From Candidatus Moraniibacteriota bacterium (GTDB lineage Bacteria; Patescibacteriota; Minisyncoccia; Moranbacterales; DUUL01): a DNA stretch of 64,000 nucleotides. Location of the stretch: NCBI GenBank assembly GCA_041583775.1, contig JBFHFF010000007.1, positions 3,382 to 67,381 of the forward strand, written 5' to 3'. Below the pieces are notes generated by a model, which saw nothing but the letters and a program-made list of their open reading frames with translations, was not told where the DNA came from and searched no databases. Both the position numbers and the translations under genes were made by a program. Positions 38,069 through 58,959 of this stretch are shown here, piece by piece; the first letter of the stretch is position 1, and the number at the start of each line of letters is the position of its first letter.

Positions 38069-39308
38069 TGTTATTTTATTTTTAAAACCATCAATAGTGA
38101 AAAAAATTGTAAAAATTACTACCTTGTGTTTATTAGTAGTATTTTTGGGGGGTCTTTCTGGAATACTAGCTGATCGATTTCTAATGCCCTGGTTGTCATC
38201 AAAAGAATCTTTAAATAAATGGTCTTTTTTTAAGAAACCTAAGGAAAATGTAACTGTTATAAATAAAACAGAGCAAGTAGTTGTTGGCGATGATTTTTCT
38301 GCTGCCAAAATTGCACAGAAAATTTTACCATCAGTTGTGAAAATTGTTTCATATGAAGAGATTGAAGTTACTGATAAAAAGAGTGATAACCTTAAAGACA
38401 CCCTTAAGGAGATTAAATCCAGTGAAGATATTCAAAAAAGAGTTAAGACTGGATTAGTTATTACCAATGATGGGCTTATAATGAGTGTTAGTAGAGAAGA
38501 GACTGAGCAAAAGAATAAATCAAAAGTAGAGTTAAGGCATAAAATTTTATTTTCTGATGGTAAAGAGTTTGATGCCGAGCTGATTCTTTCTGATGAGTAT
38601 TCAGGATTGGAGTTTTTTAAGGCAAATCAAGAAAATTTGCCTACTCCAACTTTTGGAAATTCAATGTATTTGGAATCTGGAGAAAAAATCGTTATTGTTG
38701 GAGACATTGCAGAAGAATATCAAAACAACCTTGCTTCTGGAATTATTAGTGAAGTTGATGAGAAATATACGCTATTAAACTCACAATTATCTTCATCTGA
38801 AAAAATTGAAGGTGCACTTTTGAGTGATATTAAAATTGATGAAGAAAACATTGGTGGACCAGTGTTTGATGTTAATGGAACTGTTATTGGAATTGCTAAT
38901 GTTGTTGTAAAAGATGGTGAGAAGGAAGGGTTTATAATTCCTATAAATAGCCTAAAGAGCACCATTGACAGAGTGGTTAGAGGAGAAGAAGTGAAACGCG
39001 CCAAGTTGGGAGTATACTATCTATCAATTGATAAGGAGCTTGCGCTAATAAGCGATTTGTCAGTCTCAGCGGGTGCGTTGGTTTATTCTTTCTCTGGACA
39101 ACAGGGCTTGGCTGTCAAAAGGGGTTCGGCTGCTGATTTAGCCGGTATAAAAATTGGAGATATACTCTTGACCGTGAATGGTACAGCGATTACATTGGAG
39201 AAGTCTCTTTCTAGTTTAATTTCGGAGATTGCTCCTGGTGACAAAGTTAAATTTAAAATTCTTCGAGATAAAGGAGAAGCGGTTGAAGTGGAAATTGTTT
39301 TGGAATAA
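38025..39308 (+). CDS. HtrA-like pseudoprotease with PDZ domain; catalytic His/Asp/Ser all substituted (possible GTG start at 38097)
   Basis: Aligns with the upstream HtrA, but [11 protein letters not shown] replaces [14 protein letters not shown] replaces DIAVIKIE, and ENIGGPVFD replaces GNSGGPIID. Confidence 0.75.
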
Positions 39309-39318
39309 TAAATATAAA

Positions 39319-39969
39319 ATGAGAATTGTTTTTGATCTTGACCACACCCTTTTTAAAACAAATTTGTTTAAGAAAGACTTTTTTAAGTTATTTGTGCTGG
39401 CTGGAACTGATGATTTTACAATAAGAAAAACTTACCAAAAACACCTTAAAGAAGAGGGTGGTGCCTATGATTTTAAAAAGCATTGCTCTGAGATTAAGAA
39501 AAGCAATGTGAAATTTAAAGAAAGTTTTGCAATTGCTCTATTTGAAAAATTTTTAGCGAATACAGATTTTTCAAGATATATAGAAAGGGGGTGTCTCAAA
39601 TTTTTAAAAGAGCAGAAAACTGCTGGAAGCTATCTTGTTCTATTGACAAAGGGAGGGGATGAGCTTCAGCGGATTAAAATCGAAAAAACTGGTTTTTTAA
39701 ATGTTTTCGATGAAATATCGATTTGTAAAGACACAAAATTGGATAAAATAAAAGAGTTGAAGCTCGGTAAATATGATTTTTTTATTAATGATTTATGTAA
39801 AGAAACGCTGGAAATAAGAGAAAGGTTTCCTTTATTGAGATTTGTTATGCTGGATATAGAAAATCATAAAAAAAGAGCTAAAAAATGCTCATCTTTAAAA
39901 TTGGACGATATACCAATTATCAATTCGATTAGAAACCTGGAAAGTGTTATAGAAAAAACAAGAAAATAA
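39319..39969 (+). CDS. HAD-superfamily hydrolase (start at internal Met of the track ORF)
   Basis: MRIVFDLDHTLF (DxDxT motif I); downstream K and DD motifs. Confidence 0.65.
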   Translation: MRIVFDLDHTLFKTNLFKKDFFKLFVLAGTDDFTIRKTYQKHLKEEGGAYDFKKHCSEIKKSNVKFKESFAIALFEKFLANTDFSRYIERGCLKFLKEQKTAGSYLVLLTKGGDELQRIKIEKTGFLNVFDEISICKDTKLDKIKELKLGKYDFFINDLCKETLEIRERFPLLRFVMLDIENHKKRAKKCSSLKLDDIPIINSIRNLESVIEKTRK

Positions 39970-39997
39970 ATCATAGCAGTCGCTATGATTTATTGTT
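39968..39997 (+). terminator. rho-independent terminator
   Basis: AAATCATAGC-agtc-GCTATGATTT then T-run. Confidence 0.6.
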
Positions 39998-40014: not shown

Positions 40015-40043
40015 TTGACTTTTTTGCCACTTTGTAGTATAAA
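40015..40043 (+). promoter_or_regulatory. sigma70-like promoter (TTGACT-17-TATAAA) for the Wzz genes
   Basis: ttgact at 40015-40020, tataaa at 40038-40043. Confidence 0.4.
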
Positions 40044-40109: not shown

Positions 40110-42752
40110 ATGAGTAAATTTGTTTTGGATGTAATAAAAAAATGGCAATTGGTTTTGTATATTTCGCTTATGTTAAGTGCGGTGACTTTTTTTGTATCCA
40201 CTGCAATTGCTCCAAAATATAGATCAGATATAACAGTTTTGATAACTCAGAAAGATGCGGATGTGCTAACGGCATCTCAAAATGCTGAATATTTGAGTGA
40301 TGTTTTTGAGAAAGTTCTTTATACGGAATCTTTTATGAGGGGTGTATTGAAGAGTGATGCTGAAATTAAAAGAGAATTTTCAGGGGATGCTAAGAAAAGA
40401 ATAAAAGAGTGGGCAGCTGAAATTCAAACAGAGAAAGTTGGGAGTTCTGGAATCTTAAAAATAGTTGTTTTTGATCCAAGAAGCGAAGATTCCTATAAGA
40501 TAGCAACAGGCATTGTTAATAATTTTAAAGAAAATAGAACTGAATATTTTGGAGAAAAAGATGAGGTTGAAATAAAAATTCTTGATGGGCCAATAAGTTC
40601 GTCAAAAGTTGCCTATCCAGATATAAAACTAAACACAGCTCTTGGTTTTTTTGTGGGGGTTATTGGATCTCTAATGATTATTTTGTTTTTTGAAGATTTT
40701 GATTTGAGACTCGTTAGGAAGTCTAAAAGAGGGATAGCTTTTTCGATAAAGTCTGCAGAGAAAGCAATTGAGCAAAAAATCGGCGATCAGTTGGTTCGAC
40801 AACTTGAAAAGAGAAAGGATAATGTAGCTTTGGAGTATCTAGAGAAACAGTTTGAGCGAGGTGATGATTTTGCGACATCAGAAAATCCTTCATTTATAGA
40901 TACATCCATAGATACATTGAATACATTGAAGCAAGATGTTGATAGTTCGAAAGAAATAGCGAAACAAAAAAATTCGATTATAAGTGAAGAGCTTGAATAT
41001 ATTGATATTCCAGAAGAGGATGATTTTGACAAGGAGGATGAGAAGTTTTTTTATTCTGCGCATAGCCAAGAAAGTGAAGTGGGTGAGTCTATTAATAAAT
41101 CAGAAATTGTGCTGAAGGGTTCTTTTAGTAATAGGGGGGCAATAAAAGATTTGGAAAATACCAAAGAAAAAGAAGTTGAAATTGTAGACACAAAAAAGAG
41201 TAGTGAAGATTTTTGGGAAAATATGCACTCAATAGATGGTGTGGAAGATGATTTAAAAGATGATCACAAGGACAATCCTTTATTAGCAGATTCTATGGTT
41301 GATATAGATAGGTATCATGAGATTATTCAAGCTGGAGAAACTTTTAAAGGCTTTAAAAGGCTTCGAGAGCAATATCAATCAAAAGATTCGAGTGAAACTG
41401 ATATTGAAAATAAAAAAATAGCTTTAAAAGAAGACTCTGAAAAAAAAGTTGATTTTGATGGTGAAAATGATGCTATCAAACAAGGAAGAGGAGAAGTTGT
41501 TGAATTGGAAAAAGAGTTGGATTTGCCAGAGCTTAAGAGAGGTGAGGAAGAAAAAGAGAGTGATGCAAAAAGAGAGATTGTTGCAAAGAAGGACGATAAA
41601 GAAACGCAAAAGGAGTTAGGACTAACAAAAAAAACGAAAGAGCAAGTAAAAGAAGAAGCCTTGGAATTAACTGCTGTTGGTTTGAAGAAGATTTTAGCAA
41701 CTCAAAATGTTGCACAACAAGAAGATGAGAGTGATGTTGTAGTGAAAGCGAAAGAAGATGAAGAACAAAATATTTTTAAAGAAAAAGATGTTGATGAGGA
41801 AATTCTACAAGTAGAATCTATGAGTCCGATTGGTGACATTGATGAAATCGAAGAAATAGGGGAAATAGTTGAAGAAAAAGAGTCTTTGGAGCCTTCCACT
41901 GAAAAAGAAGAAATTGAAGATGAAGAAGATTTTGAGGAAATCGTAGAGAAGAAGAAAAAGAAAGAAAAAGAGGAAATAGAAAGGTTATTGGAAGAGGAGA
42001 TAAAGAAAAATGTTCAGATAGAGCAAGAACTTGTTAGTAATAAAATCAAGAAAAAAGAGGAAGATATAATTAATCAAACAAACGAGCCTGAGGAAATAGA
42101 AAGCATTGATTATATTGGAAGTGCTGACGCTAACGAGGATGATGAATTGGAATTAAACACAAAAGAGATCCAGCGTTCAACTCAGGAGGGTTCTGAACAC
42201 GGGAATGCTTTTGCTAGGCTATATGAGAAATCTTTATTTAATGATGATAAATATAAAGAACAACAAGCTAAGAGAGTAACTCATCATATGGAAATGGACC
42301 CAGAAGAGTTGGAAATGATGCGGAAGATGTTGGAGGCCGAGGGAAAGAGCGAGGAGGAGTTTGTTTTGGAAAACGGGCTTGTTGAAATTGACGAGGAATC
42401 TGCAGAAAGTTTAAAAAAAGAGAATGTGAAGGATGTTGAGTTGAATGAAAAAATCTCAATAAAAAAATCAACTTTTGAACCAGTAGAGGAGTCTGTGAGG
42501 AAAATAGAGACGACAGAAGAATTGCAAATGGGGGATAAGAAAGGCGCTGCTCCCCACGGTTTGGCGATTTTTATGGAGGAAGAAGATGAGCAAGACACAT
42601 TTGCCAGAAATTTGCTCAAGGAAAAAGTTCAAAATAAAGGGAATGAGCAATTAAAGGGACAGGCTATTGATAAGATTATTGATCCCAATAAGGAAGTTTC
42701 GGAGGAAGAAATTAAAGATAGATTAAATAGGCTATTACAAGGGGAATTGTAA
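40110..42752 (+). CDS. Wzz/polysaccharide co-polymerase (chain-length determinant) domain protein with about 680-aa Glu/Lys/Asp-rich cytoplasmic tail
   Basis: TM1, periplasmic Wzz-like region (APKYRSDITVL...), TM2 GFFVGVIGSLMIILFF, then low-complexity acidic repeats to residue 880. Confidence 0.75.
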   Translation: MSKFVLDVIKKWQLVLYISLMLSAVTFFVSTAIAPKYRSDITVLITQKDADVLTASQNAEYLSDVFEKVLYTESFMRGVLKSDAEIKREFSGDAKKRIKEWAAEIQTEKVGSSGILKIVVFDPRSEDSYKIATGIVNNFKENRTEYFGEKDEVEIKILDGPISSSKVAYPDIKLNTALGFFVGVIGSLMIILFFEDFDLRLVRKSKRGIAFSIKSAEKAIEQKIGDQLVRQLEKRKDNVALEYLEKQFERGDDFATSENPSFIDTSIDTLNTLKQDVDSSKEIAKQKNSIISEELEYIDIPEEDDFDKEDEKFFYSAHSQESEVGESINKSEIVLKGSFSNRGAIKDLENTKEKEVEIVDTKKSSEDFWENMHSIDGVEDDLKDDHKDNPLLADSMVDIDRYHEIIQAGETFKGFKRLREQYQSKDSSETDIENKKIALKEDSEKKVDFDGENDAIKQGRGEVVELEKELDLPELKRGEEEKESDAKREIVAKKDDKETQKELGLTKKTKEQVKEEALELTAVGLKKILATQNVAQQEDESDVVVKAKEDEEQNIFKEKDVDEEILQVESMSPIGDIDEIEEIGEIVEEKESLEPSTEKEEIEDEEDFEEIVEKKKKKEKEEIERLLEEEIKKNVQIEQELVSNKIKKKEEDIINQTNEPEEIESIDYIGSADANEDDELELNTKEIQRSTQEGSEHGNAFARLYEKSLFNDDKYKEQQAKRVTHHMEMDPEELEMMRKMLEAEGKSEEEFVLENGLVEIDEESAESLKKENVKDVELNEKISIKKSTFEPVEESVRKIETTEELQMGDKKGAAPHGLAIFMEEEDEQDTFARNLLKEKVQNKGNEQLKGQAIDKIIDPNKEVSEEEIKDRLNRLLQGEL

Positions 42753-42844
42753 AAAATCAGGAAGTGATACAAAAATACTTGACATATAGCAATTTATGTA
42801 CTATTGTAGCATATTAAATTATATTCAAAGTAGTCATTAAAAAA

Positions 42845-43516
42845 ATGGATTTAAAGTTTATTATCAGAAAAAGACAAACAATAATAGTAATTTCATTGAT
42901 TGCGTTACTTTTGGTGACTATTTTTACGCTTTTACAGCCTGTTAAATATAGCGCTAAGGCCAAAGTTTTGGTTGTGCAAAAATTCAATAAGGATGTTGAC
43001 TCATATGATATTGCAAGGTCAAAAGCTTATTTAGGTGAAATATTAGCAGAAGTTGTTACTACATATCCGATTTATGATCAAGTTGCAAAAAGTGAGTTTG
43101 GTGTTGATCGAGGGTATTTTGAAAAAAAACCAGAAATTGATAATGTTGTAAAAAAATGGAAAAAAACTGTTGATGCTTCAAGCTATGGCGATTCTGGAAT
43201 TATTGAAATTGTAGTAAAGCATTCAAATGCTAAACAAGCAGAGAATATTTCAAACGGAATTTTGGAAGTGCTTGCCAATAAGCATTCAAAATATCACAAT
43301 GGTGAGAATGTCAAATTAACAACAATTGATCCCCCAGTTATTGGATTGGCATCACCTAATATTAAACTGAATCTTATGATTGCTTTTTTTATGGGACTTT
43401 CTTTTGCTTTTATTTATATTGTGGTTTTCCCGGAGCCAGAACACGACTTGAATATTTTCAAAAAAAAGAAGAGTAATTTGCTTGAAATTAAAACGCTAAA
43501 AACACTTGACAAATAA
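42845..43516 (+). CDS. second Wzz/chain-length-determinant family protein (223 aa, CapA/YveK-like)
   Basis: TM1, QPVKYSAKAKVLV..., C-terminal TM LMIAFFMGLSFAFIYIVVF; TTGACA-17-TATTGT upstream at 42779-42807. Confidence 0.75.
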   Translation: MDLKFIIRKRQTIIVISLIALLLVTIFTLLQPVKYSAKAKVLVVQKFNKDVDSYDIARSKAYLGEILAEVVTTYPIYDQVAKSEFGVDRGYFEKKPEIDNVVKKWKKTVDASSYGDSGIIEIVVKHSNAKQAENISNGILEVLANKHSKYHNGENVKLTTIDPPVIGLASPNIKLNLMIAFFMGLSFAFIYIVVFPEPEHDLNIFKKKKSNLLEIKTLKTLDK

Positions 43517-43813: not shown

Positions 43814-44467
43814 ATGACGACAAAAAAAGTTTTTTTAACAAGTTTCTTTATTTTTTTCATCGCATTGCCCGCATTTGCCTGCGAGGGACCTGAGTGTTCG
43901 GAGCCAGTGGTTCCGGACTTGTCGGAAGGTTGTATCGGCAGCTGTGATGGTGCAATTGCCATCGGGGCTGCAAATGGAGACGTCTTCGCAAATGTGAAGG
44001 TTGAGAGAGGGGATCTTTTCGCAGAAGCCTGCGGAGACTTGGAAATGGTCAATATGGCCGGAGCTCCAAGTGATGGTGTTGTATCGGTTGAAAATAAATT
44101 CGGCCGAACAGCGCTGGTGGAGAAGATATCACCGGATGGAAACACCGGTTTTCAGTTTGCGGAAGCAATTTCTGCGCAACTTAATTCGCAGGCTGAAAAC
44201 GGCGGATACACTGCCGGCGCAATTAAGGCCGAAAATACAGTTTCGGCAAATGGCAGCGCTGTCGCCTGGGAGAGAGGTGATTCTGTTGGGCTCAAAATGG
44301 ACCTTAACCAGGCCGTAAACTCAGCAGCGATGTTTTGCGCAGCTGACGGAACGACTGGAAGCCTTAACTCGGAAGTTATTGCAAATAGCTTCCAAAATAT
44401 TGAAACGGAAGCCATCACTGGCTTCCAGCAAAGTATGATATCAACAAAAATTGGTATCAACAAGTAG
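43814..44467 (+). CDS. secreted Cys-rich/Ala-Gly-rich hypothetical protein (island gene 1)
   Basis: Signal peptide MTTKKVFLTSFFIFFIALPAFA; CEGPECSEP...GCIGSCDG; SD AAGGAG. Confidence 0.7.
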   Translation: MTTKKVFLTSFFIFFIALPAFACEGPECSEPVVPDLSEGCIGSCDGAIAIGAANGDVFANVKVERGDLFAEACGDLEMVNMAGAPSDGVVSVENKFGRTALVEKISPDGNTGFQFAEAISAQLNSQAENGGYTAGAIKAENTVSANGSAVAWERGDSVGLKMDLNQAVNSAAMFCAADGTTGSLNSEVIANSFQNIETEAITGFQQSMISTKIGINK

Positions 44468-44493
44468 GAGGTGTAGGCCACAATAGGCCGATC

Positions 44494-44525
44494 AAAGCCC
44501 AGGAAATATTTTTTTCCTGGGCTTT
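44494..44525 (+). terminator. rho-independent terminator
   Basis: Perfect 13-bp stem AAAGCCCAGGAAA/TTTCCTGGGCTTT. Confidence 0.7.
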
Positions 44526-44651
44526 ATAACGAAAAATTAGTGAAATTTGAAAAAATAAGGCGAATAGAATGAAAACTTTTTCATCAGTAATTTGTAAAAA
44601 TAGGTGGCGAAATTATTTTCTTAATTGGGTATAGGAGTAATTAAAAAAGAC

Positions 44652-44680
44652 TTGACAAAAATAAAAAAAAAGTGTATAGT
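44652..44680 (+). promoter_or_regulatory. sigma70-like promoter TTGACA-17-TATAGT for island gene 2
   Basis: ttgaca 44652-44657, tatagt 44675-44680; about 170-nt leader with TGTGCAA-type inverted repeats. Confidence 0.55.
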
Positions 44681-44852
44681 TCTTAGAATGCTCTTTAAGA
44701 TAGTTTCTTATTAAAATAACCAAGTTCATCATTCATCGCATTGTGCAATGAGTGATGAATAGTTTATTTTGAGTATTTTGACAATTTAAAATTGCACATT
44801 TATTTGTGCAATAAAAAACAGTTCAGACGGAAGTCTGAACAAGGAGGAGAAT

Positions 44853-46178
44853 ATGGAAAAAATATGGATGTTAAGGTTAAGTTTGTTGTTGATGGTTCTG
44901 CTGTTTGGGTCTCAGGCTCAAGCGCAGACGAATTTTTCGGGAAATTCAAAGGTGTCGGTTGAAAATGACACCAGTAATTTTCTTAACACCCAGGTAGTTG
45001 CTGGGGGGGCCAATGTCTCAATTGACTTTGGAAGTGGAGAGGCTGGTGCTGACAAGTATCCAGGGGGATTATTGGGCGCTTATTATATGGGCGTTCCTGA
45101 AACTCCAAACATCCCCTTGCCACAGGCAAGCAAAGGTGGTTCTTGGAGGTTGCAGGCTGCAGATTTAGTATTTGCAGGTCTTCCGGCCGTGCTAACTCCT
45201 GATTCCATCAGGAGTTATGAGATGAATAAAACCATCCTTGTTGATGACAAGGATGATAAAAAGGAGCTTCGTGAGAAATTCGATAAGGCGAAGCGAAAGC
45301 TTCTTCTGAGTGCAAATGTTGTTTTGCCGGTAGTATTACCGGAAACCAACAGTATTCGTTTGAGTAAGAAGCTTCCGGCGCCCAATGGGATGCTTTTTGG
45401 AGAAAGTTATTCTCCAGCAGGCAACCTAACCTTTCATACAGTGGAAGAACTTGATGGATGGTTTCAGAAAGCGGATATGAAAAGTCTCTCTTCCGGTGAT
45501 CTTGCCGTTATGTTGGCAAGTGCCGGAATGAAGTGCGGAGCATCATTGATGGTCCCGACCGGCCAAGGTGCTGAAAATATATTCAACACAACGGCCGGAA
45601 GTAAGAGCTTGAGCGGACTGCTCTCAAGCGTTACAAATCTCGCAGGACAAAACGCTTTGCCGTCAGCAGTGTCTGCTGGCGGAGGAATTTCCGGGACTGA
45701 CGGTAACAACAATGTCGTCCATCAACCATATTTAACAGTCGCCTTGTTTAAAAAAGAGGCAGGACCTGTTAAAGGAAAACTTCAAAGAGATATTTTCTAT
45801 GAACTGGTAATGTGCGCATTGCCAGTTCCGGAGCCAAATGGAAGACTTCGATTAGAGGTGGCGAATCAGATGCTTCAGAAATATTTCGATTCCGGTCGGA
45901 ATAATGTGGAGCCACTGATTCATGCCCAGGCTAATTTAGCCCAATCCATCAAGGATGGAAAAAAGTCTCGAATCATAAAAGAGGCTTTGGCTGCCACCTG
46001 GGCTGAAAGAGTGATACTTGTGGGGCGCGGTTATAAGCAAGGACTTATGACTGAAAGAGAGTATAAAAACTCTCACCTACACAACCTTAAGAAGGCAGAA
46101 GGAGCAATGTCTTCTTATGGATTTAAGTCCATAAGAACGCTTGATCTCTGCGCAAAGGATTTGTCAAATCTAAAATAA
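44853..46178 (+). CDS. secreted 441-aa hypothetical protein (island gene 2)
   Basis: Signal peptide MEKIWMLRLSLLLMVLLFGSQAQA; SD AAGGAGG; no recognisable domain. Confidence 0.7.
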   Translation: MEKIWMLRLSLLLMVLLFGSQAQAQTNFSGNSKVSVENDTSNFLNTQVVAGGANVSIDFGSGEAGADKYPGGLLGAYYMGVPETPNIPLPQASKGGSWRLQAADLVFAGLPAVLTPDSIRSYEMNKTILVDDKDDKKELREKFDKAKRKLLLSANVVLPVVLPETNSIRLSKKLPAPNGMLFGESYSPAGNLTFHTVEELDGWFQKADMKSLSSGDLAVMLASAGMKCGASLMVPTGQGAENIFNTTAGSKSLSGLLSSVTNLAGQNALPSAVSAGGGISGTDGNNNVVHQPYLTVALFKKEAGPVKGKLQRDIFYELVMCALPVPEPNGRLRLEVANQMLQKYFDSGRNNVEPLIHAQANLAQSIKDGKKSRIIKEALAATWAERVILVGRGYKQGLMTEREYKNSHLHNLKKAEGAMSSYGFKSIRTLDLCAKDLSNLK

Positions 46179-46252
46179 CCGAAACAATTCCCGCCCAAAC
46201 TTCGGTTTTGGCGGGAACTAAAAAAACTCTTGAAAAAGAGGGAGGAGTCAAC

Positions 46253-47232: not shown

Positions 47233-48594
47233 TTAAATTCTATAGTTTTTTCTATTTGTTCTAATTGCTAAAAGTCCACCAGCTTCTGCCCAGAAAGCCC
47301 ATTGAAGTGCAGTTGCGTTAATGATGTTATCTCCAAAACTTGCTGCGTATAATCCTATTGTGAAACAAAGAAAAATCAAGAATAAAAAGGCTATTTCATC
47401 GTTGTTTTTTGATCTTGAGAGAAATTCTAATAACAATTCTTTTAATAGAGATAGAAAAATTATAATAAAAGCGACAAGACCAATTATTCCATTTCCTAGA
47501 AGAATTCTTAAAAAATCATTATGAGGGGCTGGAGAGCCAAGTCGAAGACCGCGTCTTTCTAGAATCAATTCCTCGGCAGTTCCAGTTCCATACCCCAATA
47601 TTGGAGCTTCTCTCGAATATACCAAAGCATCTTGCCATAAATTGAATCTCCAAGATATTGAACTGTATGGCGAAAGTGTTGTAATAGAATTTATTCGTTC
47701 ACGAATCGGAGAGATTATCAAATATACTGAAAAAAAAGCGATTATTGAAAAAAACAAAAGTTTTCGCAACTTCAACATTCCAGCACCAAGAATCATAAAA
47801 GCAAATAAAATCCACGCACCCCTAGTATAGGTCAATATCAGCAGGAAAAAGAATATTAAAAAAGAAGTTACATAGATCCATTTTTGGTAGTATTTATTTG
47901 TAAGAAGAAACATTTCAATTGAAAGTGCGATTGAAAGTGTTAATGAGAAAGCAAAGAGATTGGGATGTGCAAAGGTGCCAAAAAGTCTGTTGGGAATATC
48001 TTGATATGAAAGTGATAAGCCAGTGTTAGTTGTTAGCTGATAAAAAGCAACAAGTGAAGGGATTATCATTGAAGCAATTATGGTCACGGTTAACTCTAAT
48101 AAATCCTTTTTTGTTTTTATTGCAATAAAACCAAGGATAAAAAATGAAAAAATTGTTGAAACTCTTACAAGCTCTGAAATGCTGGAAGTTTTGTTGAAGG
48201 AAAATGAAATTCCAAAAATTAAGATAATAAGAAAAATCAACCATTGTTTTAGAAGTGGATTTTTCTTGAGTTTAGCGAGTTGGTTGGGTAATTTTAAAAC
48301 AGTTATTAGGATTAGCACTATGCCTAGAATTGAGGCAAGATTTATTGGATTGTTAAAAACCTTTAAAATAGTTATCTCTGAGGAAAAATCTAGGATTGGT
48401 CGTAACAATAATAATAAAAAAAACCCCCATTTTAAATCTATGAAAAAGACTAAAAATGTGAAAAAAATTCCAATGAGAAGAAGTGTGATAAGCAGTGGTG
48501 TCTTGAAAAAAGACAAAAACCCAACAAAAACAGTAATTGAAAGTATTGTGATGACGGCTAAAAGGTAGTTGTAGAAGTTTTTTTTACTTGACAT
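47233..48594 (-). CDS. O-antigen ligase/polymerase-like (Wzy/WaaL family) membrane protein
   Basis: About 12 TM; YTRGAWILFAFMILGAG segment typical of the Wzy_C domain. Confidence 0.65.
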   Translation of the reverse strand: MSSKKNFYNYLLAVITILSITVFVGFLSFFKTPLLITLLLIGIFFTFLVFFIDLKWGFFLLLLLRPILDFSSEITILKVFNNPINLASILGIVLILITVLKLPNQLAKLKKNPLLKQWLIFLIILIFGISFSFNKTSSISELVRVSTIFSFFILGFIAIKTKKDLLELTVTIIASMIIPSLVAFYQLTTNTGLSLSYQDIPNRLFGTFAHPNLFAFSLTLSIALSIEMFLLTNKYYQKWIYVTSFLIFFFLLILTYTRGAWILFAFMILGAGMLKLRKLLFFSIIAFFSVYLIISPIRERINSITTLSPYSSISWRFNLWQDALVYSREAPILGYGTGTAEELILERRGLRLGSPAPHNDFLRILLGNGIIGLVAFIIIFLSLLKELLLEFLSRSKNNDEIAFLFLIFLCFTIGLYAASFGDNIINATALQWAFWAEAGGLLAIRTNRKNYRI

Positions 48595-48765
48595 ACTAGC
48601 TTGATTGTGATAATTTTAATAGCTTTATATATGCACTTTGCTTAATTTTTTTTAGCATAAACATTTTTTATAATTATGTTTATGAAAAGTTATCTTAGCA
48701 TAGGCATTAATTCAAATCAATAGAGCGCGTTTTTTAAAAGGAATTTAACTTTTATCAAAGAATCT

Positions 48766-50028
48766 ATGAGAATTTTGGTTGTTAATAATAATTTTTTCCT
48801 TCGCGGAGGTGCTGAACGGGCGTTTTTTGATATGATAAATATTCTTGAAAAAAAAGGGCATAAGGTTGCACATTTTTCTTCAAAAACAAAAGAAGACCGA
48901 CAATCCCCTTGGGAGAAATATTTTGTTAAATATAACGAACTTAGTGATTCGTCAAAATTTGGAACTTTTGAGAAGATGAAAATTGTTTCTAGAATTTGGT
49001 ATAACTTCGAAACTCGGCGAAAACTAAGAGAATTAATAAAAGAATTTCAACCAGAAGTGGCGCATCTGCACAATATATTTCATCATCTAAGTCCATCGGT
49101 TATTGATGAGCTGAAGAAGCAGGGAGTTCCAATAGTATGGACACTACATGATTATAAAATGGTTAGTCCTAGTTATGACCTAAGTGTTCGTGGAAATATT
49201 TGGGAGGAAAACAAAAAAGGAAGAATGCATAAATGTATCACACATAAATGTGTCTATGATTCATATCTTAAAAGCACTGTTTGTGTGATTGAAAATTTTT
49301 TACATCGATTTTTAAAAACCTTTAACAAAGTTGACCAATTTATTTCACCAAGCAATTTTTTAATAGATAAATATGGAGAATTTGGTTTTAAAGCTCAAAT
49401 AGAAAAAATTGTTAATCCTGTTTTGCCAAGAAAAGTTAATTTTGATTTGGAGCCTTGGAAATTGGGAATTGGTGAGCACAGAGAAGGTTTTATGCTCTAT
49501 GTTGGGAGACTTTCTTTTGGGAAAGGAGTGCAAGATTTAATAGAAGCCTATGCTGGTCTTGATACAAGAACTTCCTTGCTTATTGCTGGTGATGGGCCAG
49601 AAAGAGAAGGGTTGGGATTGCTTGCGAAAAAATTAAATGTTTGTGGAAAGGTTAAATTTTTAGGAAAACTGGAAGATGATAAGCTTTTTCCAATAATGGC
49701 TCGTGCGGATTTTGTTGTTATGCCATCAAGGCTTTATGAGAATGCTCCCTATGGAATTTTAGAGGCAATGTTGTTGGGAAAGCCAGTGATATCTTCTAAT
49801 TTAGGTGGTTCGAGAGAAATTATTAAAAATAGTGGTGCAGGCGATTTATTTGAAGCGGGAGATGTGGATGATTTGAAAGTTAAATTGCAATATGCGGTTG
49901 AAAATAAAGAGTTTTTCAAGGAAAAGGGATCGCAAGGAAGGAAATTCATTGAAGAACATTATAGTGAAGATTTGTTTTATGATAAGTTGATGACGATATA
50001 TAGAGCTTTAATTTCAAAAAAGGCCTAG
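48766..50028 (+). CDS. GT4 (GT-B fold) glycosyltransferase
   Basis: GRLSFGKGVQDLIEA...YENAPYGILEAMLLGKPVISSNLGGSREII. Confidence 0.85.
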   Translation: MRILVVNNNFFLRGGAERAFFDMINILEKKGHKVAHFSSKTKEDRQSPWEKYFVKYNELSDSSKFGTFEKMKIVSRIWYNFETRRKLRELIKEFQPEVAHLHNIFHHLSPSVIDELKKQGVPIVWTLHDYKMVSPSYDLSVRGNIWEENKKGRMHKCITHKCVYDSYLKSTVCVIENFLHRFLKTFNKVDQFISPSNFLIDKYGEFGFKAQIEKIVNPVLPRKVNFDLEPWKLGIGEHREGFMLYVGRLSFGKGVQDLIEAYAGLDTRTSLLIAGDGPEREGLGLLAKKLNVCGKVKFLGKLEDDKLFPIMARADFVVMPSRLYENAPYGILEAMLLGKPVISSNLGGSREIIKNSGAGDLFEAGDVDDLKVKLQYAVENKEFFKEKGSQGRKFIEEHYSEDLFYDKLMTIYRALISKKA

Positions 50029-50093
50029 AGGTTATTTTAGATATAAGGATGGGGGCGAATTGGAACAGGTTAACAAAAAGATAATTAAAAATT

Positions 50094-51275
50094 ATGAAAA
50101 TAGCATTTATTGGACAAAAGGGAATACCAACACATCAAGGAGGAATTGAAAGGCATGTTGAGGAATTAGCTATTCGCTTAGTTTCTCAAGGTTGTGAAGT
50201 GATTGCCTATACAAGACCATATTATGTTGATAAAAATTTAAAAGAATATAAAGGAATTCAGTTGATTAGTTTGCCGACAATTCGCACAAAACATCTTGAT
50301 GCCATTGTCCACACTTTTTTTGCTTGTCTTAATGTTGGAAAACATAAAGTCGACATAATTCATTTCCATTCAATAGGACCATCATTTTGGATTTGGTTGG
50401 CAAAACTTTTAAACCCAAGAACGCCAATTGTTGCGACTTTCCATCTTCAGTGTTATAGGCATAAAAAATGGGGAAAGTTTGCAAAGTTGTCTTTGAAAAT
50501 AGGGGAAATTATTTGTTGTTTGTTGTCAGATAAATTGATTGTTGTTTCTAGAAATCTAAAGAGGATGGTTCATAGGAATTACAAAAGAACCGCAGACTAT
50601 ATTCCTAACGGTGTTCCAAGTTACAAAAGAGTAAAGGCTGACGAGATAAATAAAATAGGACTCAAAAAAGAAGGGTATATCTTGTATGTAGGAAGATTAG
50701 TAGAGAGTAAAGGGGCACACTATTTGATTGAGGCGTATAATCACTTAGAAACTGAGAAGAAACTTGTTATAGTTGGGGATGAGGCACATTCGGATGGATA
50801 TGAAACAAAACTTAAGGAGATGAGCAAAGGAAATTCTAATATTGTTTTCACTGGCAGACTCGAAGGAAATAGTCGGTTGTTGGCAGAGCTTTTTTCTAAT
50901 GCATATCTTTTTGTGCATCCCTCAGAAATCGAAGGCTTGTCAATTTCGCTTTTGGAAACAATGTCATATGCAAGAGCGGCTTTGGTTTCTGATATCCCCG
51001 AGAACATTGAAGCGGTTCAGTCAGCGGGATTTTCATTTAAAAATGGAGACTCAAAAGACCTAGTATTTCAATTGAAGAAATTAATGGAAATGCCGAGCCA
51101 GGTCCACAAAAAAGGATTGGAGGCAAAAAATAGAGCAGAAAATCATTATAGCTGGGAGGCTGTTTCATCAAAAACTTTGGTTGTTTACAGGGAATTGAAG
51201 AATAATAGAGATTGTAGAAAAGAATTTTTTCCTAGACTTAGATATATCAAAAATTTTTTAGGAGGGATGTTTTAG
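50094..51275 (+). CDS. GT4 glycosyltransferase
   Basis: MKIAFIGQKGIP...GGIERHVEEL; EGLSISLLETMSYARAALVSDIPEN. Confidence 0.85.
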   Translation: MKIAFIGQKGIPTHQGGIERHVEELAIRLVSQGCEVIAYTRPYYVDKNLKEYKGIQLISLPTIRTKHLDAIVHTFFACLNVGKHKVDIIHFHSIGPSFWIWLAKLLNPRTPIVATFHLQCYRHKKWGKFAKLSLKIGEIICCLLSDKLIVVSRNLKRMVHRNYKRTADYIPNGVPSYKRVKADEINKIGLKKEGYILYVGRLVESKGAHYLIEAYNHLETEKKLVIVGDEAHSDGYETKLKEMSKGNSNIVFTGRLEGNSRLLAELFSNAYLFVHPSEIEGLSISLLETMSYARAALVSDIPENIEAVQSAGFSFKNGDSKDLVFQLKKLMEMPSQVHKKGLEAKNRAENHYSWEAVSSKTLVVYRELKNNRDCRKEFFPRLRYIKNFLGGMF

Positions 51276-51292
51276 TTTATTGAAGTTAAAAA

Positions 51293-52264
51293 ATGGGATA
51301 TTTTATTAGAAAAATCAAGGAGAGATTTTGGAAGGAGCAATGGAGTATTGCTGTTTTTCGTGGAAAAGCTTCAGATTTGCTTGAAGGTCAAATTAATCAA
51401 AACGACTTACAGTGGTTATTTTCTGATTATAAAAAAGGCTTTTGTGCTGATCCTTTTGTGATAGAGGATGGAAAGTCTGTTTTTTTGTTCTATGAACAAT
51501 TTGAATATGATAAACAGAAAGGAAGAATAATGGTTTCAGAACTTATCGAAGATGAGGATGGGAAAATAACAACCACTGAAAGTGAAGTGGCTATTGAACG
51601 AGATAAGCACATTTCATATCCATTTGTTTTTTCATTTAATGGAGAAATGTTTATGATTCCAGAAACTTCAGCAGAAAACGAAATTGCTCTTTATAAAGCA
51701 ATTGATTTTCCTTTGAAATGGGAAAGGGAAAGAGTGCTTATCCCAAATTTTGCTGGAATAGATGCAACGCTTCATTTTGCAGATGGAAAGTGGTGGATTT
51801 TTTGTTCAAATGCCAAAAGTGGCGCAAATGAGAATTTATATATTTTCTATGCAGAAGATCTTTTTGGTATTTGGCAGGAACATAAAAAAAATCCTGTTAA
51901 AATAGATATTGAAGATTCTCGTATGGCAGGTTCCTTTCTCTTGTGGAAGGGAAAGACTATTAGGGTTGCGCAAAATTGCAAAAGAACATATGGAGAGGAA
52001 GTTGTTTTGAATGAATTGGAAATTCTTTCAATTGAAGATTTCAAGGAAAAAGAGCTTTATGCGCTTAGTTTAAGTAATAAATCAGAGTATTCTGAGGGAA
52101 TGCACACGATTTCTGCAAGTGAGCATTTTGTTGCAATTGATGCAAAAAGATTTTTGGGAATTAGGAAATATTTAGATAAATGGAATTCTAAAAGGAAAGT
52201 CTGTCTTGTTAAAGTAGGGAAGGTGTTCCAAAAAAAGAGTCTACTTGGTATAATAAAAAAATGA
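51293..52264 (+). CDS. predicted beta-propeller protein (GH43/GH130-like fold), polysaccharide-modifying, function uncertain
   Basis: Repeated blade-like segments (CADPFVIEDGKSVFLFYE, HISYPFVFSFNGEMFMIPE, ATLHFADGKWWIFCS, GSFLLWKGKTIRVAQN). Confidence 0.35.
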   Translation: MGYFIRKIKERFWKEQWSIAVFRGKASDLLEGQINQNDLQWLFSDYKKGFCADPFVIEDGKSVFLFYEQFEYDKQKGRIMVSELIEDEDGKITTTESEVAIERDKHISYPFVFSFNGEMFMIPETSAENEIALYKAIDFPLKWERERVLIPNFAGIDATLHFADGKWWIFCSNAKSGANENLYIFYAEDLFGIWQEHKKNPVKIDIEDSRMAGSFLLWKGKTIRVAQNCKRTYGEEVVLNELEILSIEDFKEKELYALSLSNKSEYSEGMHTISASEHFVAIDAKRFLGIRKYLDKWNSKRKVCLVKVGKVFQKKSLLGIIKK

Positions 52265-52294
52265 AGAAAAAGGAAATAAAGAAAACATTTAACA

Positions 52295-52942
52295 ATGACT
52301 AGAAAGAAAAAACAAAATAAAAAAGTGGCAGTCGGGATTGCAGAAAAATTTCTATCTTTAATGGAAAAACAAAAACGCAAATTTCTTTATCTTTTTGCTG
52401 TAGTAATAATCGCCAATGTTGTTTTTTTAGTTGTTTTTAAAGGGGTAGATTCAATTTGTGGCTTGATATCAGCAAGTGAAATTTATATCGAAAGTAAGAT
52501 TAGAAATGAAAATGTGGATCATTTTGTAGAGGTTCGTAAAGTGATTTCTAATGTCGAGAAGAATCTTGATTACATTGAAATTGAACTTGGTTGGCCGACA
52601 GACGATGTTTGGTTGGATGGTGAAAAGAGGTTGGATTTATTGGCTTCATTAAGAAGATTAGATGAACTCTCTTATGAACTCGAATGGGTTGCAAATGGAT
52701 ATTTCACTGACTATTCCATTCAATATTATCCAATTGAGACAGGAAATTTGTCGAGCTATATTTACGAAACGAGATATTTGAAAAAATCAATTGATAGATT
52801 TGTGCGTGTGGCTGAAATTGCTATCGCACTAGATTCTTTTGATAAAAGACAAATTGAAGTTGTTCAAGTTGAATTGGATGAAATTGGAGAATATTTGAAG
52901 AATATTGATCAATTTGAACAAAGATTGCGTTTATTTAATTAG
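52295..52942 (+). CDS. hypothetical protein with N-terminal TM anchor
   Basis: FLYLFAVVIIANVVFLVVF; no recognisable motif. Confidence 0.5.
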   Translation: MTRKKKQNKKVAVGIAEKFLSLMEKQKRKFLYLFAVVIIANVVFLVVFKGVDSICGLISASEIYIESKIRNENVDHFVEVRKVISNVEKNLDYIEIELGWPTDDVWLDGEKRLDLLASLRRLDELSYELEWVANGYFTDYSIQYYPIETGNLSSYIYETRYLKKSIDRFVRVAEIAIALDSFDKRQIEVVQVELDEIGEYLKNIDQFEQRLRLFN

Positions 52943-52986
52943 GGCGCTGAAATTCTGACATTAAAAAATTTAAAAAAATAAAAAAA

Positions 52987-54171
52987 GTGATAAAGATAGG
53001 AATTAATGCGTCATTCATTCGCAAACAGGATTCGGGAATTGGACAAGTAAGTATGAATTTTATAAAGACACTTGTAAATGAGATTCAGAAAAATCCCGAT
53101 GTTTTTGGTGACATTGTCTTTGTTTTGTATCTAGAGAAGGATGTGGAAATGGAGCTACCTGATAATTTTGAGAAGTCAGTGATAAAGTCTTTTTACAAAA
53201 GGGATGATTTAGTGAGGAAAATTATTTGGGAGAAAATTTTACTTCCACGACAAATTGAGAAAGACAGTTGTGATGTGTTTTTGTCTCTTTATCAGTCCCC
53301 AACTGTATTAAAAAATACAAAACATATAATGCTTGTGCACGATGCAGTCTGGAAGAAATTTCCTCAGTACCTGAATAATTTTCGCAAGAAAATTTATTAT
53401 TATCTAATCGGAAGGGGAATTGCAAAGGCTGATAAGGTTATTACGGTTTCGGAAAATTCCAAAAAAGATATCAAGAGATTTTTTGATAAAATAGACGAAG
53501 AAATTAGAGTTATTTCAATTGATTGCGATCAGATTTTTAAAGAAAAGCTTTCTGATGACAAGAAAGCGGAAGTGTTAGCGAAATTTAGATTGGAAGAGGA
53601 GGGATATATTTTTTATGTTGGGGGTTTTGATGTTAGAAAAAATGTTGATGCACTTTTGCGTGCTTATGGTGTTTTATATACTAGGCAGAGTAAAAAAATA
53701 GAAATGCCGCGTTTGATTTTGGCAGGATCATTTCATTCAAATCTAGTTCCATTAGTTACTGACATTCCAAATATTGCAGAGAGTGTTATGCAAAAAAATG
53801 GGATACCAAGAGGTTATATTGAATCAATTGGTTTTGTTTCACAAGAGGATTTGCCGTTTGTTTTTGCAGGTGCAAAAATGTTTTGCTACCCATCTTTATA
53901 TGAAGGATTTGGCTTGCCAGTTTTAGAGGCAATGAATGTTGGTTGTCCAGTTGTGACATCAAACATTTCTTCTATTCCTGAAATCTTAAACGAAACAGAG
54001 GCTGTTCTGGTTGATCCTAAAAATGATGAAAAGATTGCAGAAGGAATGTTGAATTATCTTATTGATGATGATTTGCGGGAGGAAAAAATTCGTAACGCAA
54101 AAAAGAAATCAATCGAGTTTAGTTGGGAAAAAACTACAAATGAAATAATGAATTTATTAACAAAAATCTAA
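52987..54171 (+). CDS. GT4 glycosyltransferase
   Basis: FYVGGFDVRKNVDALLRAY...EGFGLPVLEAMNVGCPVVTSNISSIPE. Confidence 0.85.
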   Translation: MIKIGINASFIRKQDSGIGQVSMNFIKTLVNEIQKNPDVFGDIVFVLYLEKDVEMELPDNFEKSVIKSFYKRDDLVRKIIWEKILLPRQIEKDSCDVFLSLYQSPTVLKNTKHIMLVHDAVWKKFPQYLNNFRKKIYYYLIGRGIAKADKVITVSENSKKDIKRFFDKIDEEIRVISIDCDQIFKEKLSDDKKAEVLAKFRLEEEGYIFYVGGFDVRKNVDALLRAYGVLYTRQSKKIEMPRLILAGSFHSNLVPLVTDIPNIAESVMQKNGIPRGYIESIGFVSQEDLPFVFAGAKMFCYPSLYEGFGLPVLEAMNVGCPVVTSNISSIPEILNETEAVLVDPKNDEKIAEGMLNYLIDDDLREEKIRNAKKKSIEFSWEKTTNEIMNLLTKI

Positions 54172-54172
54172 A

Positions 54173-55816
54173 ATGAATTTCAAACAATATTTAGGAACTC
54201 TTCTTGTTGGTTTTGCAATTAGCATTTTTTTGATCATATGGAGCACTTTTTTGGAAGGGGAGATGCATTTTTTATTTTTTTTGGTTTTAATTATAGCAAC
54301 TTTCCGTTGGTGCTTTAGGTTTCCAAAGAGAGCTTTTTTGGTTTTTGTGATGTTACTTCCACTTGAAAACATCATAATCACCCCGTCAGAGTTAGGTTTA
54401 AATCTAAGGCCTTTTCAATTTCTTGGTGCAATTCTTGCGATTACCATTCTGGTGCTTGGCTATAAAAAAAAACCAATACTGAAACTTCTCAGTTTTAGCA
54501 ACATCTGTTTCTTTTGTAAGATTTTCAAAGCGAAAAATTGTAAATTAATTTCTAAAAAAGAAGCATTCAGCCCTCTTGATCGAATGGTTTTTGTTCTTCC
54601 AGTATTTGCTTTTTTGGCAATTTTAAATTCACCACTCAAAGAAGTTTCTACCAAGTTAGCAGTAATTTTTGTTTCATTTATAGTTTTGTATTGGCTTATC
54701 AGAAACTTTACTCAAACCAAACATTCGATAATTGAAGCACTCACTTTTTTTGTTTTTGGTTCAATTCCTGTGATTTTTTGGAGTTTTTATCAAGCATTGG
54801 CGAGACTTGTTGGTTGGCAAGATTTTCAAGTTTTTACAGCAAGAGTGAATGGGACTTTCACGGAACCTGATTGGTTGGGCGTTTATTTAACGCTTATGAT
54901 GGCAGTGTTGCTCTGGTTTCGTCATCTAGCAAAACCAGATACTAGCAATCTAATGATTGGTTCTTTTGGTGTGTCAAGAATTTTTGGATTTTTTATTAAT
55001 CTTTATTTTATCATTGCTTTTTCGGTATTAATTCTTACAGTTTCCAGGAGTGCTTGGTTGGGTGTTTTGGGTGTTTGTTTGGTTTATTTTGGTATTTTAT
55101 TTATGGATAAAGTTTTTCACAAAACAATTTCATTGGTACAGATTTTGAAAAATGCTTTAGTAATTGGATTTTTGGCTACATTCGCAGTTGCTATAATTAT
55201 TTTTACCAACCTTTCCACTTTTCATTTTGGAAATCGTGCAGTAAGTTCGGTTAGCGGAAAGCAATTAATTACAATTAGTTGCGAGAAGAATAATGAATTG
55301 CCAGACGAGATTAACGATATGGAGGAGTTGGAGATTTTTGGGTGTCGTCATATCGGATTGGAAGAAGTCGAGAGAGAAAAAATGAACAAAATGTTCGTGA
55401 CAACAATTATGCGACCAGATCCAAATGTCGATATTAGAAAAGATATTTACACAAAAACATCTCAGCAAATTAAAAATCATCCTTTTTTGGGGCAAGGACT
55501 GGGTAGTGCTGTTTCATTTTTGGGTCAAGATGATCACGGGAGTGGCTTGAATACTTCAAATATTGTTTTGGAAATTTTTCTTTCTATGGGGTTTATTGCA
55601 GCTGTTATTTCCGTTTATGTTATCGGATTTTTGATGGTTTGGTCGTTTGATAGGATATTTAAAAATAAGGAACATATGTTTTCTTCTTTTATTTTGCTTT
55701 CTAGTGTTGCCATCATTATTCCGAATATGTTTAATTCAGGACTTCTTTTGGGGATGTTTTGGTTTTGGTTGGCTATTGTTATTTCGATTTATAATGTAGC
55801 TACGGCTAAGGAATAA
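54173..55816 (+). CDS. second O-antigen ligase/polymerase-like (Wzy family) membrane protein
   Basis: Multi-TM; VSRSAWLGVLGVCLVYFG Wzy_C-like segment. Confidence 0.65.
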   Translation: MNFKQYLGTLLVGFAISIFLIIWSTFLEGEMHFLFFLVLIIATFRWCFRFPKRAFLVFVMLLPLENIIITPSELGLNLRPFQFLGAILAITILVLGYKKKPILKLLSFSNICFFCKIFKAKNCKLISKKEAFSPLDRMVFVLPVFAFLAILNSPLKEVSTKLAVIFVSFIVLYWLIRNFTQTKHSIIEALTFFVFGSIPVIFWSFYQALARLVGWQDFQVFTARVNGTFTEPDWLGVYLTLMMAVLLWFRHLAKPDTSNLMIGSFGVSRIFGFFINLYFIIAFSVLILTVSRSAWLGVLGVCLVYFGILFMDKVFHKTISLVQILKNALVIGFLATFAVAIIIFTNLSTFHFGNRAVSSVSGKQLITISCEKNNELPDEINDMEELEIFGCRHIGLEEVEREKMNKMFVTTIMRPDPNVDIRKDIYTKTSQQIKNHPFLGQGLGSAVSFLGQDDHGSGLNTSNIVLEIFLSMGFIAAVISVYVIGFLMVWSFDRIFKNKEHMFSSFILLSSVAIIIPNMFNSGLLLGMFWFWLAIVISIYNVATAKE

Positions 55817-55930: not shown

Positions 55931-56004
55931 GGGGGCGTAGCTCAGCTGGTTAGAGCGATTGCCTGTCACGCAATAGGTCGCCGGTTCGAGTCCGGTCGTC
56001 CCCG
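55931..56004 (+). tRNA. tRNA-Asp (anticodon GUC)
   Basis: Hand-folded: acceptor GGGGGCG/CGTCCCC (one G-U), anticodon stem ATTGC/GCAAT, loop CTGTCAC, T-loop TTCGAGT. Confidence 0.85.
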
Positions 56005-57528: not shown

Positions 57529-57534
57529 TTTGTT

Positions 57535-58940: not shown

Positions 58941-58959
58941 TTTAGAATCGATTTCTTAC

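Follow-up and report, generated by a model that had tools for sequence, protein, structure and literature searches.

The question raised by this locus is what a polysaccharide co-polymerase (PCP) does with a cytoplasmic tail of several hundred residues in which no kinase can be recognized. The locus lies on contig JBFHFF010000007.1 from a Candidatus Moraniibacteriota bacterium (Patescibacteria), in a stretch of 64,000 nucleotides that is called the window below. It consists of two neighbouring open reading frames (ORFs) on the forward strand, ORF A (40110..42752), which encodes an 880-aa PCP of the Wzz superfamily with a long cytoplasmic tail, and ORF B (42845..43516), which encodes a short PCP paralogue of 223 aa. 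An earlier note on this DNA had described the two as tandem Wzz/PCP paralogues and had proposed that in ORF A a giant polyacidic arm takes the place of a tyrosine kinase. What is new here is a subfamily of PCPs in which a disordered, tether-like tail ends in a conserved peptide, and which is found in its extreme form in Moraniibacteriota. With some reserve we lean towards the view that ORF A is a kinase-independent PCP whose tail serves as a variable-length flexible tether presenting docking peptides.

To begin with the PCP part, both ORFs were found exactly where the earlier note had placed them, and hydropathy reveals a domain of ~135 aa enclosed by two transmembrane (TM) segments in each. 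In ORF A, TM1 covers residues 12-35 (40143..40214, +; hydropathy, and a helix at 12-32 with a pLDDT >90 in the AlphaFold2 (AF2) model) and TM2 approximately residues 172-195 (40623..40694, +; hydropathy and a G-rich GNVR-like segment found in 37/115 relatives). Between them lies the extracytoplasmic alpha/beta PCP domain (residues 36-171, 40215..40622, +), which is defined by an AF2 pLDDT of 90-98, by Foldseek and by its identity among orthologues. In ORF B, TM1 and TM2 span residues 9-36 and 172-198. Counting lysine and arginine residues beside the TM segments gave 3 and 6 on the inside and 3 and 1 on the outside, and because of this distribution and the homology to PCPs the tail of ORF A (residues 206-880, 40725..42749, +; delimited by composition, charge, AF2 and orthologue comparison) is placed in the cytoplasm, with both termini inside. 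The layout of TM segment, periplasmic domain and TM segment that had been claimed for both genes thus agrees with hydropathy, the positive-inside count and AF2. As the first 215 aa of ORF A align to the full length of ORF B with 28 % identity (E = 9e-21), the two are genuine paralogues, as had been supposed.

The scores of the two proteins against the known models are low. For Pfam PF02706 (Wzz) we obtained 19.6 bits with ORF A and 23.1 bits with ORF B, both under the cutoff of 25.5, and the alignment to TIGR01006 (CpsC-type) extends across the PCP domain of either protein from end to end (model positions 14-205/226) at 35 and 57 bits, respectively, far under the cutoff of 296. Profile searches of the PDB sequences with the orthologue alignment (A1) and with ORF B gave nothing significant. 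Among 115 aligned relatives, 98 match PF02706 at E <= 1e-3 (best 1e-10) and 37 additionally match GNVR (PF13807), and ORF B is 37-41 % identical to Patescibacteria proteins bearing PF02706 plus PF13807. Using the deep family alignment, residues 1-200 of ORF A were modelled by AF2 with a pLDDT of 90-98, and in a Foldseek search of this model against the PDB all 50 top matches were Wzc or KpsE, with E = 1.6e-7 for Wzc and a target TM-score of up to 0.64 for KpsE (root-mean-square deviation 4.4-4.9 Å over ~190-200 columns). Other genes of the window encode two Wzy_C proteins, three glycosyltransferases of family GT4 and one of family GT2, as well as a Wzx flippase ~17 kb upstream. From the Wzz matches of the family, the AF2 fold, the Foldseek result and this context it follows that ORF A and ORF B are PCPs of the Wzx/Wzy-type pathway. 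In size and layout their PCP domain is nearest to the Gram-positive PCP-2b proteins, while it falls outside the defining criteria of that family, and judging from the homology to PCPs its core is probably oligomeric. The only name that NCBI gives to a member of the family is 'Wzz/FepE/Etk N-terminal domain-containing protein'.

The earlier note had itself raised the possibility that the tail of ORF A is an assembly chimera. Both a chimera and a frameshift can be ruled out, as independent contigs from Logan and from NCBI carry an identical protein, with unchanged neighbours on the Logan contig, and there are six syntenic full-length orthologues; the tail is real. Five further full-length relatives come from other samples (775-1005 aa, 40-53 % identity, 100 % coverage), and ORF A is present in three reference metagenome-assembled genomes, one of Candidatus Moraniibacteriota and one of the Patescibacteria group UBA2772 being among them. 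Throughout this long-tail clade the gene order is kept as peptidyl-prolyl isomerase, HtrA1, DUF5656, HtrA2, (HAD), A, B, X1, X2, X3, Wzy(-), GT4, GT4, and the total protein length stays at 775-1005 aa in every member. An open frame of 2.6 kb in DNA of 33 % GC that orthologues share over its entire length goes far beyond what chance would produce. Between orthologues the PCP domain is 63-80 % identical and the tail 37-48 %. A word-indexed homologue search with alignment A3 returned the same six proteins only, as the E/K low complexity swamped the candidate words.

The tail, estimated before at roughly 680 aa, measures 675 aa and contains 19.7 % E, 12.7 % K and 8.9 % D, with a net charge of -87. 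Since its fraction of charged residues is 0.44, its net charge per residue -0.13 and its kappa of 0.21 near the shuffled value of 0.18, it is a well-mixed strong polyampholyte; with 16 % basic beside 29 % acidic residues, well mixed, the words 'highly acidic' and 'polyacidic' were an overstatement. Nor is the tail repetitive, as Tandem Repeats Finder found only trivial short arrays and a protein self-BLAST of the tail only the identity match. The tail peptide that had been quoted is present at residues ~578-633, its first residue being D and not E. Among the orthologues the net tail charge ranges from -20 to -95 and is always negative, and in shorter-tailed members of the family it is ~0 or positive (-1 in P0023, +9 in P0024). 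Because of the wide span among the orthologues, extreme acidity is not the property that has been conserved or selected.

By composition the tail falls on the disordered side of the Uversky boundary, and 415 of its residues have a pLDDT under 50 in the AF2 model. The description as a disordered arm is right insofar as most of the tail is predicted to be disordered, but the arm is not featureless: the six orthologues have ~ten conserved islands in common, several of them predicted to be helical with a pLDDT of 70-93, and two short motifs stand near the C-terminus. The AF2 helices at conserved islands lie at residues 209-253, 608-656 (pLDDT ~90), 713-754, 825-841 and 865-875, and the linkers between the islands are of variable length, rich in indels and poorly conserved in alignment A1. 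Directly after TM2 follow the juxtamembrane helices (residues 209-253, 40734..40868, +; IEQKIGDQLxRQLEKRKD..LEYL in alignment A1, AF2 helices 209-234 and 241-252), and relatives with tails of intermediate length match this region up to profile position ~245-283. An island restricted to the long-tail clade, identified from invariant A1 columns and a conserved-island scan, is located at residues 368-416 (41211..41357, +; FWENM.ID..PLLADSMVD..Y.EII.AGETFKGF). It is followed by a long E/K-rich helix at residues 608-656 (41931..42077, +), modelled by AF2 as a single helix with a pLDDT of ~88-93 and with EDFE.IVE.KK.EK.EI..LL conserved, and by the island FARLYEKS.F...HHMEMDPEELEMMRKMLEAEGKSEEEF at residues 699-757 (42204..42380, +; conservation, AF2 helices with a pLDDT of 64-82), the LYxKS.F portion of which is shared with the intermediate-tail relatives. 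A heptad-periodicity scan of the tail gave no window above its threshold, which was arbitrary.

No bacterial tyrosine kinase (BY-kinase) is hidden in the tail, in agreement with the earlier note. We found no Pfam match to the tail at E <= 0.1, no Walker A motif and no tyrosine cluster, its eight tyrosines being scattered and absent from the last 160 residues. Neither of the two AF2 models shows a beta-strand in residues 206-880, which are predicted to form helices only, nor an alpha/beta Rossmann-like region; Foldseek gave no match outside the PCP part of ORF A, and a BLAST comparison of the tail with the kinase domain of E. coli Wzc gave E = 1.5. A kinase Pfam family is likewise absent from the 115 aligned relatives. 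No small P-loop ORF was found in the 64-kb window or within ~10 kb at 14 family loci, where the P-loop scan hit only a MacB-type ABC ATPase, ClpB and chance matches, and there was no AAA_31, CbiA or ParA Pfam match and no ParA/MinD-family match among the called neighbours. Here the idea that the tail 'replaces' a kinase finds no support: since an adjacent kinase is missing from short-tailed relatives, too, and from the tail-less B-type PCPs of Patescibacteria, and none of the 115 relatives has a kinase domain, a substitution of kinase by tail cannot be traced.

An exhaustive profile search returned 833 relatives, from which 153 top cluster representatives were taken and 115 aligned members used for the counts. 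The tails of the family form a gradient, with 4-5 cluster representatives having the full tail, followed by proteins of 350-550 aa that match in 2-4 stretches and then by hundreds of PCPs of 200-350 aa. What sets the long-tail clade apart is mainly an insert of ~400 residues that follows the juxtamembrane helix, precedes the LYxKS.F island and includes clade-specific islands. Two motifs persist along this gradient, being conserved in proteins with tails of ~90 to 795 aa irrespective of the length of the linker. Motif M1 (KKGAAPHGLAIF in ORF A, residues 810-821, 42537..42572, +) was recognized in a C-terminal alignment of 15 family members; it has the family consensus KK[GA]xAPxNLPIF, stands 30-110 residues upstream of M2, and its positions P815, L818 and P819 are nearly invariant in alignment A3. 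Motif M2 is a predicted C-terminal amphipathic helix (KEVSEEEIKDRLNRLLQGEL-COOH, residues 861-880, 42690..42749, +; AF2 helix 865-875 with a pLDDT of ~80) with the consensus E[PA][ST]E[ED]E[IV]K[ED][RK]LN[KR]LL[KRQ]G[ED][LM]-COOH, or EEIKERLNKLLxGEL-COOH in its short form, in which L, N, L and G are invariant.

M2 ends 28 of the 153 top representatives, whose lengths range from 296 to 1005 aa. An independent scan for the corresponding DNA pattern in 241 million metagenome records found 24 loci, all with 0-1 residues after the motif, and those of their ORFs that are complete at the 5' end all encode, apart from one miscall of 30 aa, PCP-like proteins of 285-887 aa with two TM segments. Thus, M2 was found only on PCP-like proteins and only at their very C-terminus, on tethers that vary ~8-fold in length, and the tailed PCP family has been found independently by profile search and by DNA-pattern scan. 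ORF A fits the definition of the family with its PCP domain, its variable charged tail, a degenerate M1 and the M2 end. The 30-aa ORF (L037, 3501-3557 in LZQN01000019.1) is shortened by an upstream in-frame stop; this may be a tailed PCP gene that has suffered a frameshift or become a pseudogene, or the stop may result from an error in sequencing.

In 16 other representatives the C-terminal motif is not M2 but ..[DE]xW[ILVM][KEQR][TS]G[KRQ]F.. (core W[ILVM][KEQR][TS]G[KRQ]). They are Patescibacteria-type PCPs of 237-450 aa and include P0048, P0054, P0066, P0073, P0076, P0084, P0091, P0092, P0112, P0145 and P0149. Alternative peptides at the end of the tail thus seem to be a general theme among Patescibacteria-type PCPs. 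A pair at locus L007 of a distant relative, consisting of a 900-aa protein and a short PCP, turned out to be a coincidence of length, the 900-aa protein being an unrelated secreted PT-rich protein.

A layout in which a folded core is followed by a variable disordered linker and a conserved terminal peptide that recruits partners is well known from the C-terminal tip of SSB and from the linker and C-terminal peptide of FtsZ. In our reading ORF A is the co-polymerase of a Wzx/Wzy-dependent surface-glycopolymer pathway in Candidatus Moraniibacteriota, and ORF B an additional short paralogue retained in one sublineage. If the tail of ORF A works in a way comparable to those of SSB and FtsZ, the 675-aa extension would be an expanded, highly charged flexible tether, the length of which may matter and which carries M1, M2 and the clade-specific helical islands, and the oligomeric PCP could use its tails as a kinase-independent interaction hub, with M1 and M2 as putative binding sites. 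Through them the tails might recruit partners within the assembly machinery, cytoplasmic or peripheral to the membrane, or keep these partners organised. Of the roles that the earlier note had offered, a scaffold is the part that fits best; a polyacidic cation-binding arm does not go with net charges that spread from -20 to -95. It is also conceivable, as a tentative and more doubtful generalization, that Patescibacteria have evolved a kinase-free control of Wzy-dependent glycopolymers, in which a PCP oligomer with linkers in the style of SSB and FtsZ recruits cytoplasmic partners via M2 and M1. Such partners might be glycosyltransferases, the initiating transferase or division and elongation proteins, and in Moraniibacteriota the linker would have grown to ~675 aa and gained docking helices. 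Going by polymer scaling and published cell sizes of the candidate phyla radiation (CPR), we estimate that such a linker might reach over tens of nanometres, which in an ultra-small cell would be a considerable part of the diameter.

Several points weigh against the tether interpretation. The M1 of ORF A itself is degenerate, with GLAIF for NLPIF (the motif proline being replaced by alanine), which weakens a function of M1 in this protein. The low confidence of AF2 is only a proxy for disorder, and the comparison with SSB and FtsZ is an analogy of layout and not homology. As the kinase scan covered the window and the surroundings of the loci, a BY-kinase or pseudokinase could be encoded at a distance. 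Finally, the clade-specific insert of ~400 aa could be largely a neutral expansion.

This last point amounts to an explanation of its own, according to which the extra ~400 residues are mostly neutral low-complexity expansion in a fast-evolving, AT-rich genome, only the ancestral juxtamembrane helix, M1 and M2 matter, and the length of the tail plays no particular part. Relatives do function with tails of 90-350 aa, the linkers are poorly conserved and indel-rich, and at 33 % GC the AT-rich codons of the window should by themselves favour E, K, D, N and I. However, the insert contains islands with many invariant positions (FWENM, PLLADSMVD..Y..II.AGETF and HH.EMDPEEL.MM..ML.AEG) in proteins that are only 40-53 % identical overall, and a length of 775-1005 aa is maintained throughout the long-tail clade, so that we regard neutral expansion as unlikely.

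M2 could also be a membrane-targeting amphipathic helix similar to those of FtsA and MinD. In this case the tail would loop back to form a charged brush at the inner leaflet, surrounding the PCP oligomer, and no specific partner would be involved. The motif is indeed predicted to be helical and amphipathic, with a hydrophobic moment of 0.49 compared to 0.57 for the helix of E. coli FtsA, and when RLNKLLRGEL is set against RLNSWLRKEF of FtsA, ungapped from the C-terminus, 6/10 residues are shared. Scored on the FtsA C-terminus, the M2 profile beats 99 % of its shuffles (22/2000 as good), but this score is just 1.2 bits, was obtained post hoc with p ~0.01 uncorrected, and the best match in the whole of FtsA is not the C-terminal one. 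Moreover, M2 has no aromatic residues; its 20 residues are net acidic and the last 15 carry a charge of 0 to -1 compared to +3 in FtsA, which is unfavourable for binding to anionic membranes. An invariant N, an invariant G and a strictly free C-terminus are more what one expects of specific recognition than of unspecific binding to lipids, and we regard membrane targeting as rather improbable in comparison with docking to a partner as in the tether interpretation.

It is quite improbable that the tail is an extended modulator tail of the CapA/CpsC type, with M2 docking on a BY-kinase or pseudokinase whose gene lies in another part of the genome, which would leave the system (pseudo)kinase-dependent. 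The PCP domain is most similar to the Gram-positive CpsC/PCP-2b type, and M2 occurs only on PCPs and sits where the docking peptide of PCP-2b/pseudokinase systems sits, which there is the C-terminal cytoplasmic peptide of the PCP (PMC12004946). Against this stand the loci themselves, as no P-loop or ParA/MinD-like gene was found near the PCP at the 14 family loci or in the window. In addition, the M2 profile gave no match at E <= 10 to CapA-CapB chimeras or Wzc chains, both of which were in the searched PDB set, and its score on the alpha1/beta1 segment of Wzc was -4.7 bits, with 1601/2000 shuffles as good. The likeness of M2 to the CapA/Wzc alpha1-beta1 kinase-docking peptide is thus unsupported by both the PDB profile search and direct scoring, and that of M1 to the C-terminal peptide of FtsZ (DIPAFL) is weak and has no profile support. 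Very unlikely, finally, is a polyacidic element for the export machinery that binds cations (Mg2+, polyamine) or acts electrostatically, as the net charge of -87, the 29 % D+E and the negative tails of all orthologues that speak for it are met by the spread from -20 to -95, by values of ~0 or above in shorter-tailed members, by well-mixed charges without the polyacidic tracts typical of cation sinks, and by the fact that discrete motifs and not charge are what is conserved.

ORF B has a tail as well, which is only 25 aa long and basic (EHDLNIFKKKKSNLLEIKTLKTLDK, 43439-43513, +). It is conserved among the clade orthologues, being near-invariant in proteins that are only 64-83 % identical overall, and its net basic charge is opposite to that of the ORF A tail. 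Orthologues of ORF B with their own conserved basic 25-aa tail are present in the long-tail clade and at L014, and more distant B-type PCPs in Patescibacteria are essentially tail-less. Upstream of ORF A there is a promoter-like element (TTGACT-17-TATAAA, 40015..40043, +), and between A and B a second one (TTGACA-17-TATTGT, 42779..42807, +; 10/12 consensus matches); both are consensus matches only. A strong terminator-like palindromic hairpin (39965-39994) stands before the first element and after the preceding HAD gene, and ORF A seems to have a promoter-like element of its own.

The glycopolymer genes downstream, identified by Pfam, are WzyC_1 (47233-48594, -), GT4_1, GT4_2, a GINT1_N-like gene, GT4_3 and WzyC_2 (54173-55816), together spanning 47233..55816. 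Wzy_C and GT4 genes, with or without GT2, always stand beside A-type PCPs, as seen at eight loci from different lineages, and orthologues of Wzy_C and of GT4_1/GT4_3 accompany them at L002, L004, L005, L009, L014, L015 and L016. Two dedicated modules, A with WzyC_2/GT4_3 and B with WzyC_1/GT4_1, had been suggested by L009 and L007; the idea is unsupported and was dropped because L015 and L016 have only an A-type PCP and yet orthologues of WzyC_1 and GT4_1. Just past the cluster we found a large serine recombinase (55966-57528, -) with Resolvase, Recombinase and zinc-ribbon domains, at a place where the GC skew is reversed and a series of small ORFs occupies the minus strand (56000-60000). The glycopolymer cluster may thus be bordered by an integrated element.

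Between the PCP pair and these genes lie three ORFs of 217, 441 and 292 aa (43814-47086, +) with signal-peptide-like N-termini, no Pfam match and a GC content of ~0.43 compared to ~0.33 elsewhere in the window. They have syntenic homologues (23-38 % identity) at L002, L004 and L005 and partly at L009 and L014, and on account of these a recent insertion is ruled out. In the 292-aa protein a LLAEQTAHAKTK segment is duplicated, and a TM segment plus basic anchor stands at the C-terminus. All three may be surface proteins tied to the glycopolymer cluster.

On the other side, a HAD-family hydrolase gene (39229-39969, +) stands immediately upstream of ORF A; it is conserved at L002 and L005 and gave no BLAST match at L004, L009, L014, L015 and L016. 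It separates ORF A from the gene of an HtrA-like protein (38025-39308, +) in which none of the three catalytic residues of the paralogue at 35751-37085 is left (His in TNKH changed to EQKN, Asp in LDIAV to SGLEF, Ser in GNSGGP to ENIGGP) and which retains the TM anchor and the PDZ domain. It looks like a membrane-anchored pseudoprotease, as far as its sequence tells. This protein is conserved, together with a DUF5656-like membrane protein, beside the tailed PCP in the clade of the window and at L009, L011 and L014 but not at L015 and L016, so that the HtrA/DUF5656 linkage is confined to one sublineage. The strictly C-terminal hydrophobic end of M2 as a ligand of the neighbouring HtrA-like PDZ domains is excluded by topology, as the two lie on opposite sides of the membrane, the tail in the cytoplasm and the PDZ domains outside it, and the missing linkage at L015 and L016 speaks against it too.

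PCPs with such tails are now annotated only as 'hypothetical' or 'Wzz N-terminal domain-containing', and M1 and M2 make the subfamily recognisable. In the literature that was searched we found no account of PCPs in CPR/Patescibacteria or of PCPs with such disordered tails. The lineage belongs to the Patescibacteria, which are genome-reduced and mostly uncultured, and its PCPs have no visible kinase partner and instead a conserved terminal peptide on a tether. M1 and M2 may thereby offer a concrete handle on how PCPs might be regulated without BY-kinases. Should they be docking sites, this would be a third, scaffold-by-tail way of coupling cytoplasmic steps to polymerisation, and the peptides of 12-20 residues could be used as baits for partners in organisms that are genetically intractable.

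In known systems the genes of modulator and kinase are normally adjacent, as in cpsCD, capAB and tkmA-ptkA. The PCP-2b proteins CapA, CpsC/Wzd and TkmA resemble ORF A and ORF B in their two TM segments around an alpha/beta domain of ~135 aa, with ~200 aa up to TM2, in their setting within a Wzy/glycosyltransferase cluster and in a functional-looking C-terminal cytoplasmic peptide. In contrast to them, the tail of ORF A has 675 aa and not ~30, no BY-kinase is adjacent, and the terminal peptide has no sequence similarity to the kinase-docking segment of CapA/Wzc. With the PCP-2a proteins Wzc and Etk, ORF A shares a large cytoplasmic region after TM2 and the Foldseek match of the TM/periplasmic part, but this region has no P-loop kinase, Walker motifs, tyrosine cluster or beta-strands, and the extracytoplasmic domain does not have the long helical barrel of Wzc. 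PCP-1 (Wzz/FepE/WzzE) and PCP-3 (KpsE) proteins have the same PCP base fold, KpsE giving the best superposition. The former differ by long periplasmic coiled coils and by having essentially no cytoplasmic domain, and KpsE acts together with KpsMT ABC transporters. Genes for these are absent here, and the ABC system close by is of the MacB type.

PCP-2 proteins are thought to require a ring of cytoplasmic BY-kinase or pseudokinase for cycling between oligomeric states (PMC12004946). The systems EpsV/EcpK and HfsA/HfsB operate without tyrosine phosphorylation, by scaffolding at the cytoplasmic face via the C-terminus of the PCP (PMC12004946), and in this they are similar to what we propose for ORF A. 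The difference is that they have a folded BY-kinase-like partner encoded nearby, none of which is seen near ORF A, where the cytoplasmic element is a long disordered and helical tail on the PCP itself. In its general layout ORF A is comparable to SSB and FtsZ, by analogy and without homology, as in all of them a linker that varies several-fold in length connects an oligomeric core to a strictly conserved terminal motif.

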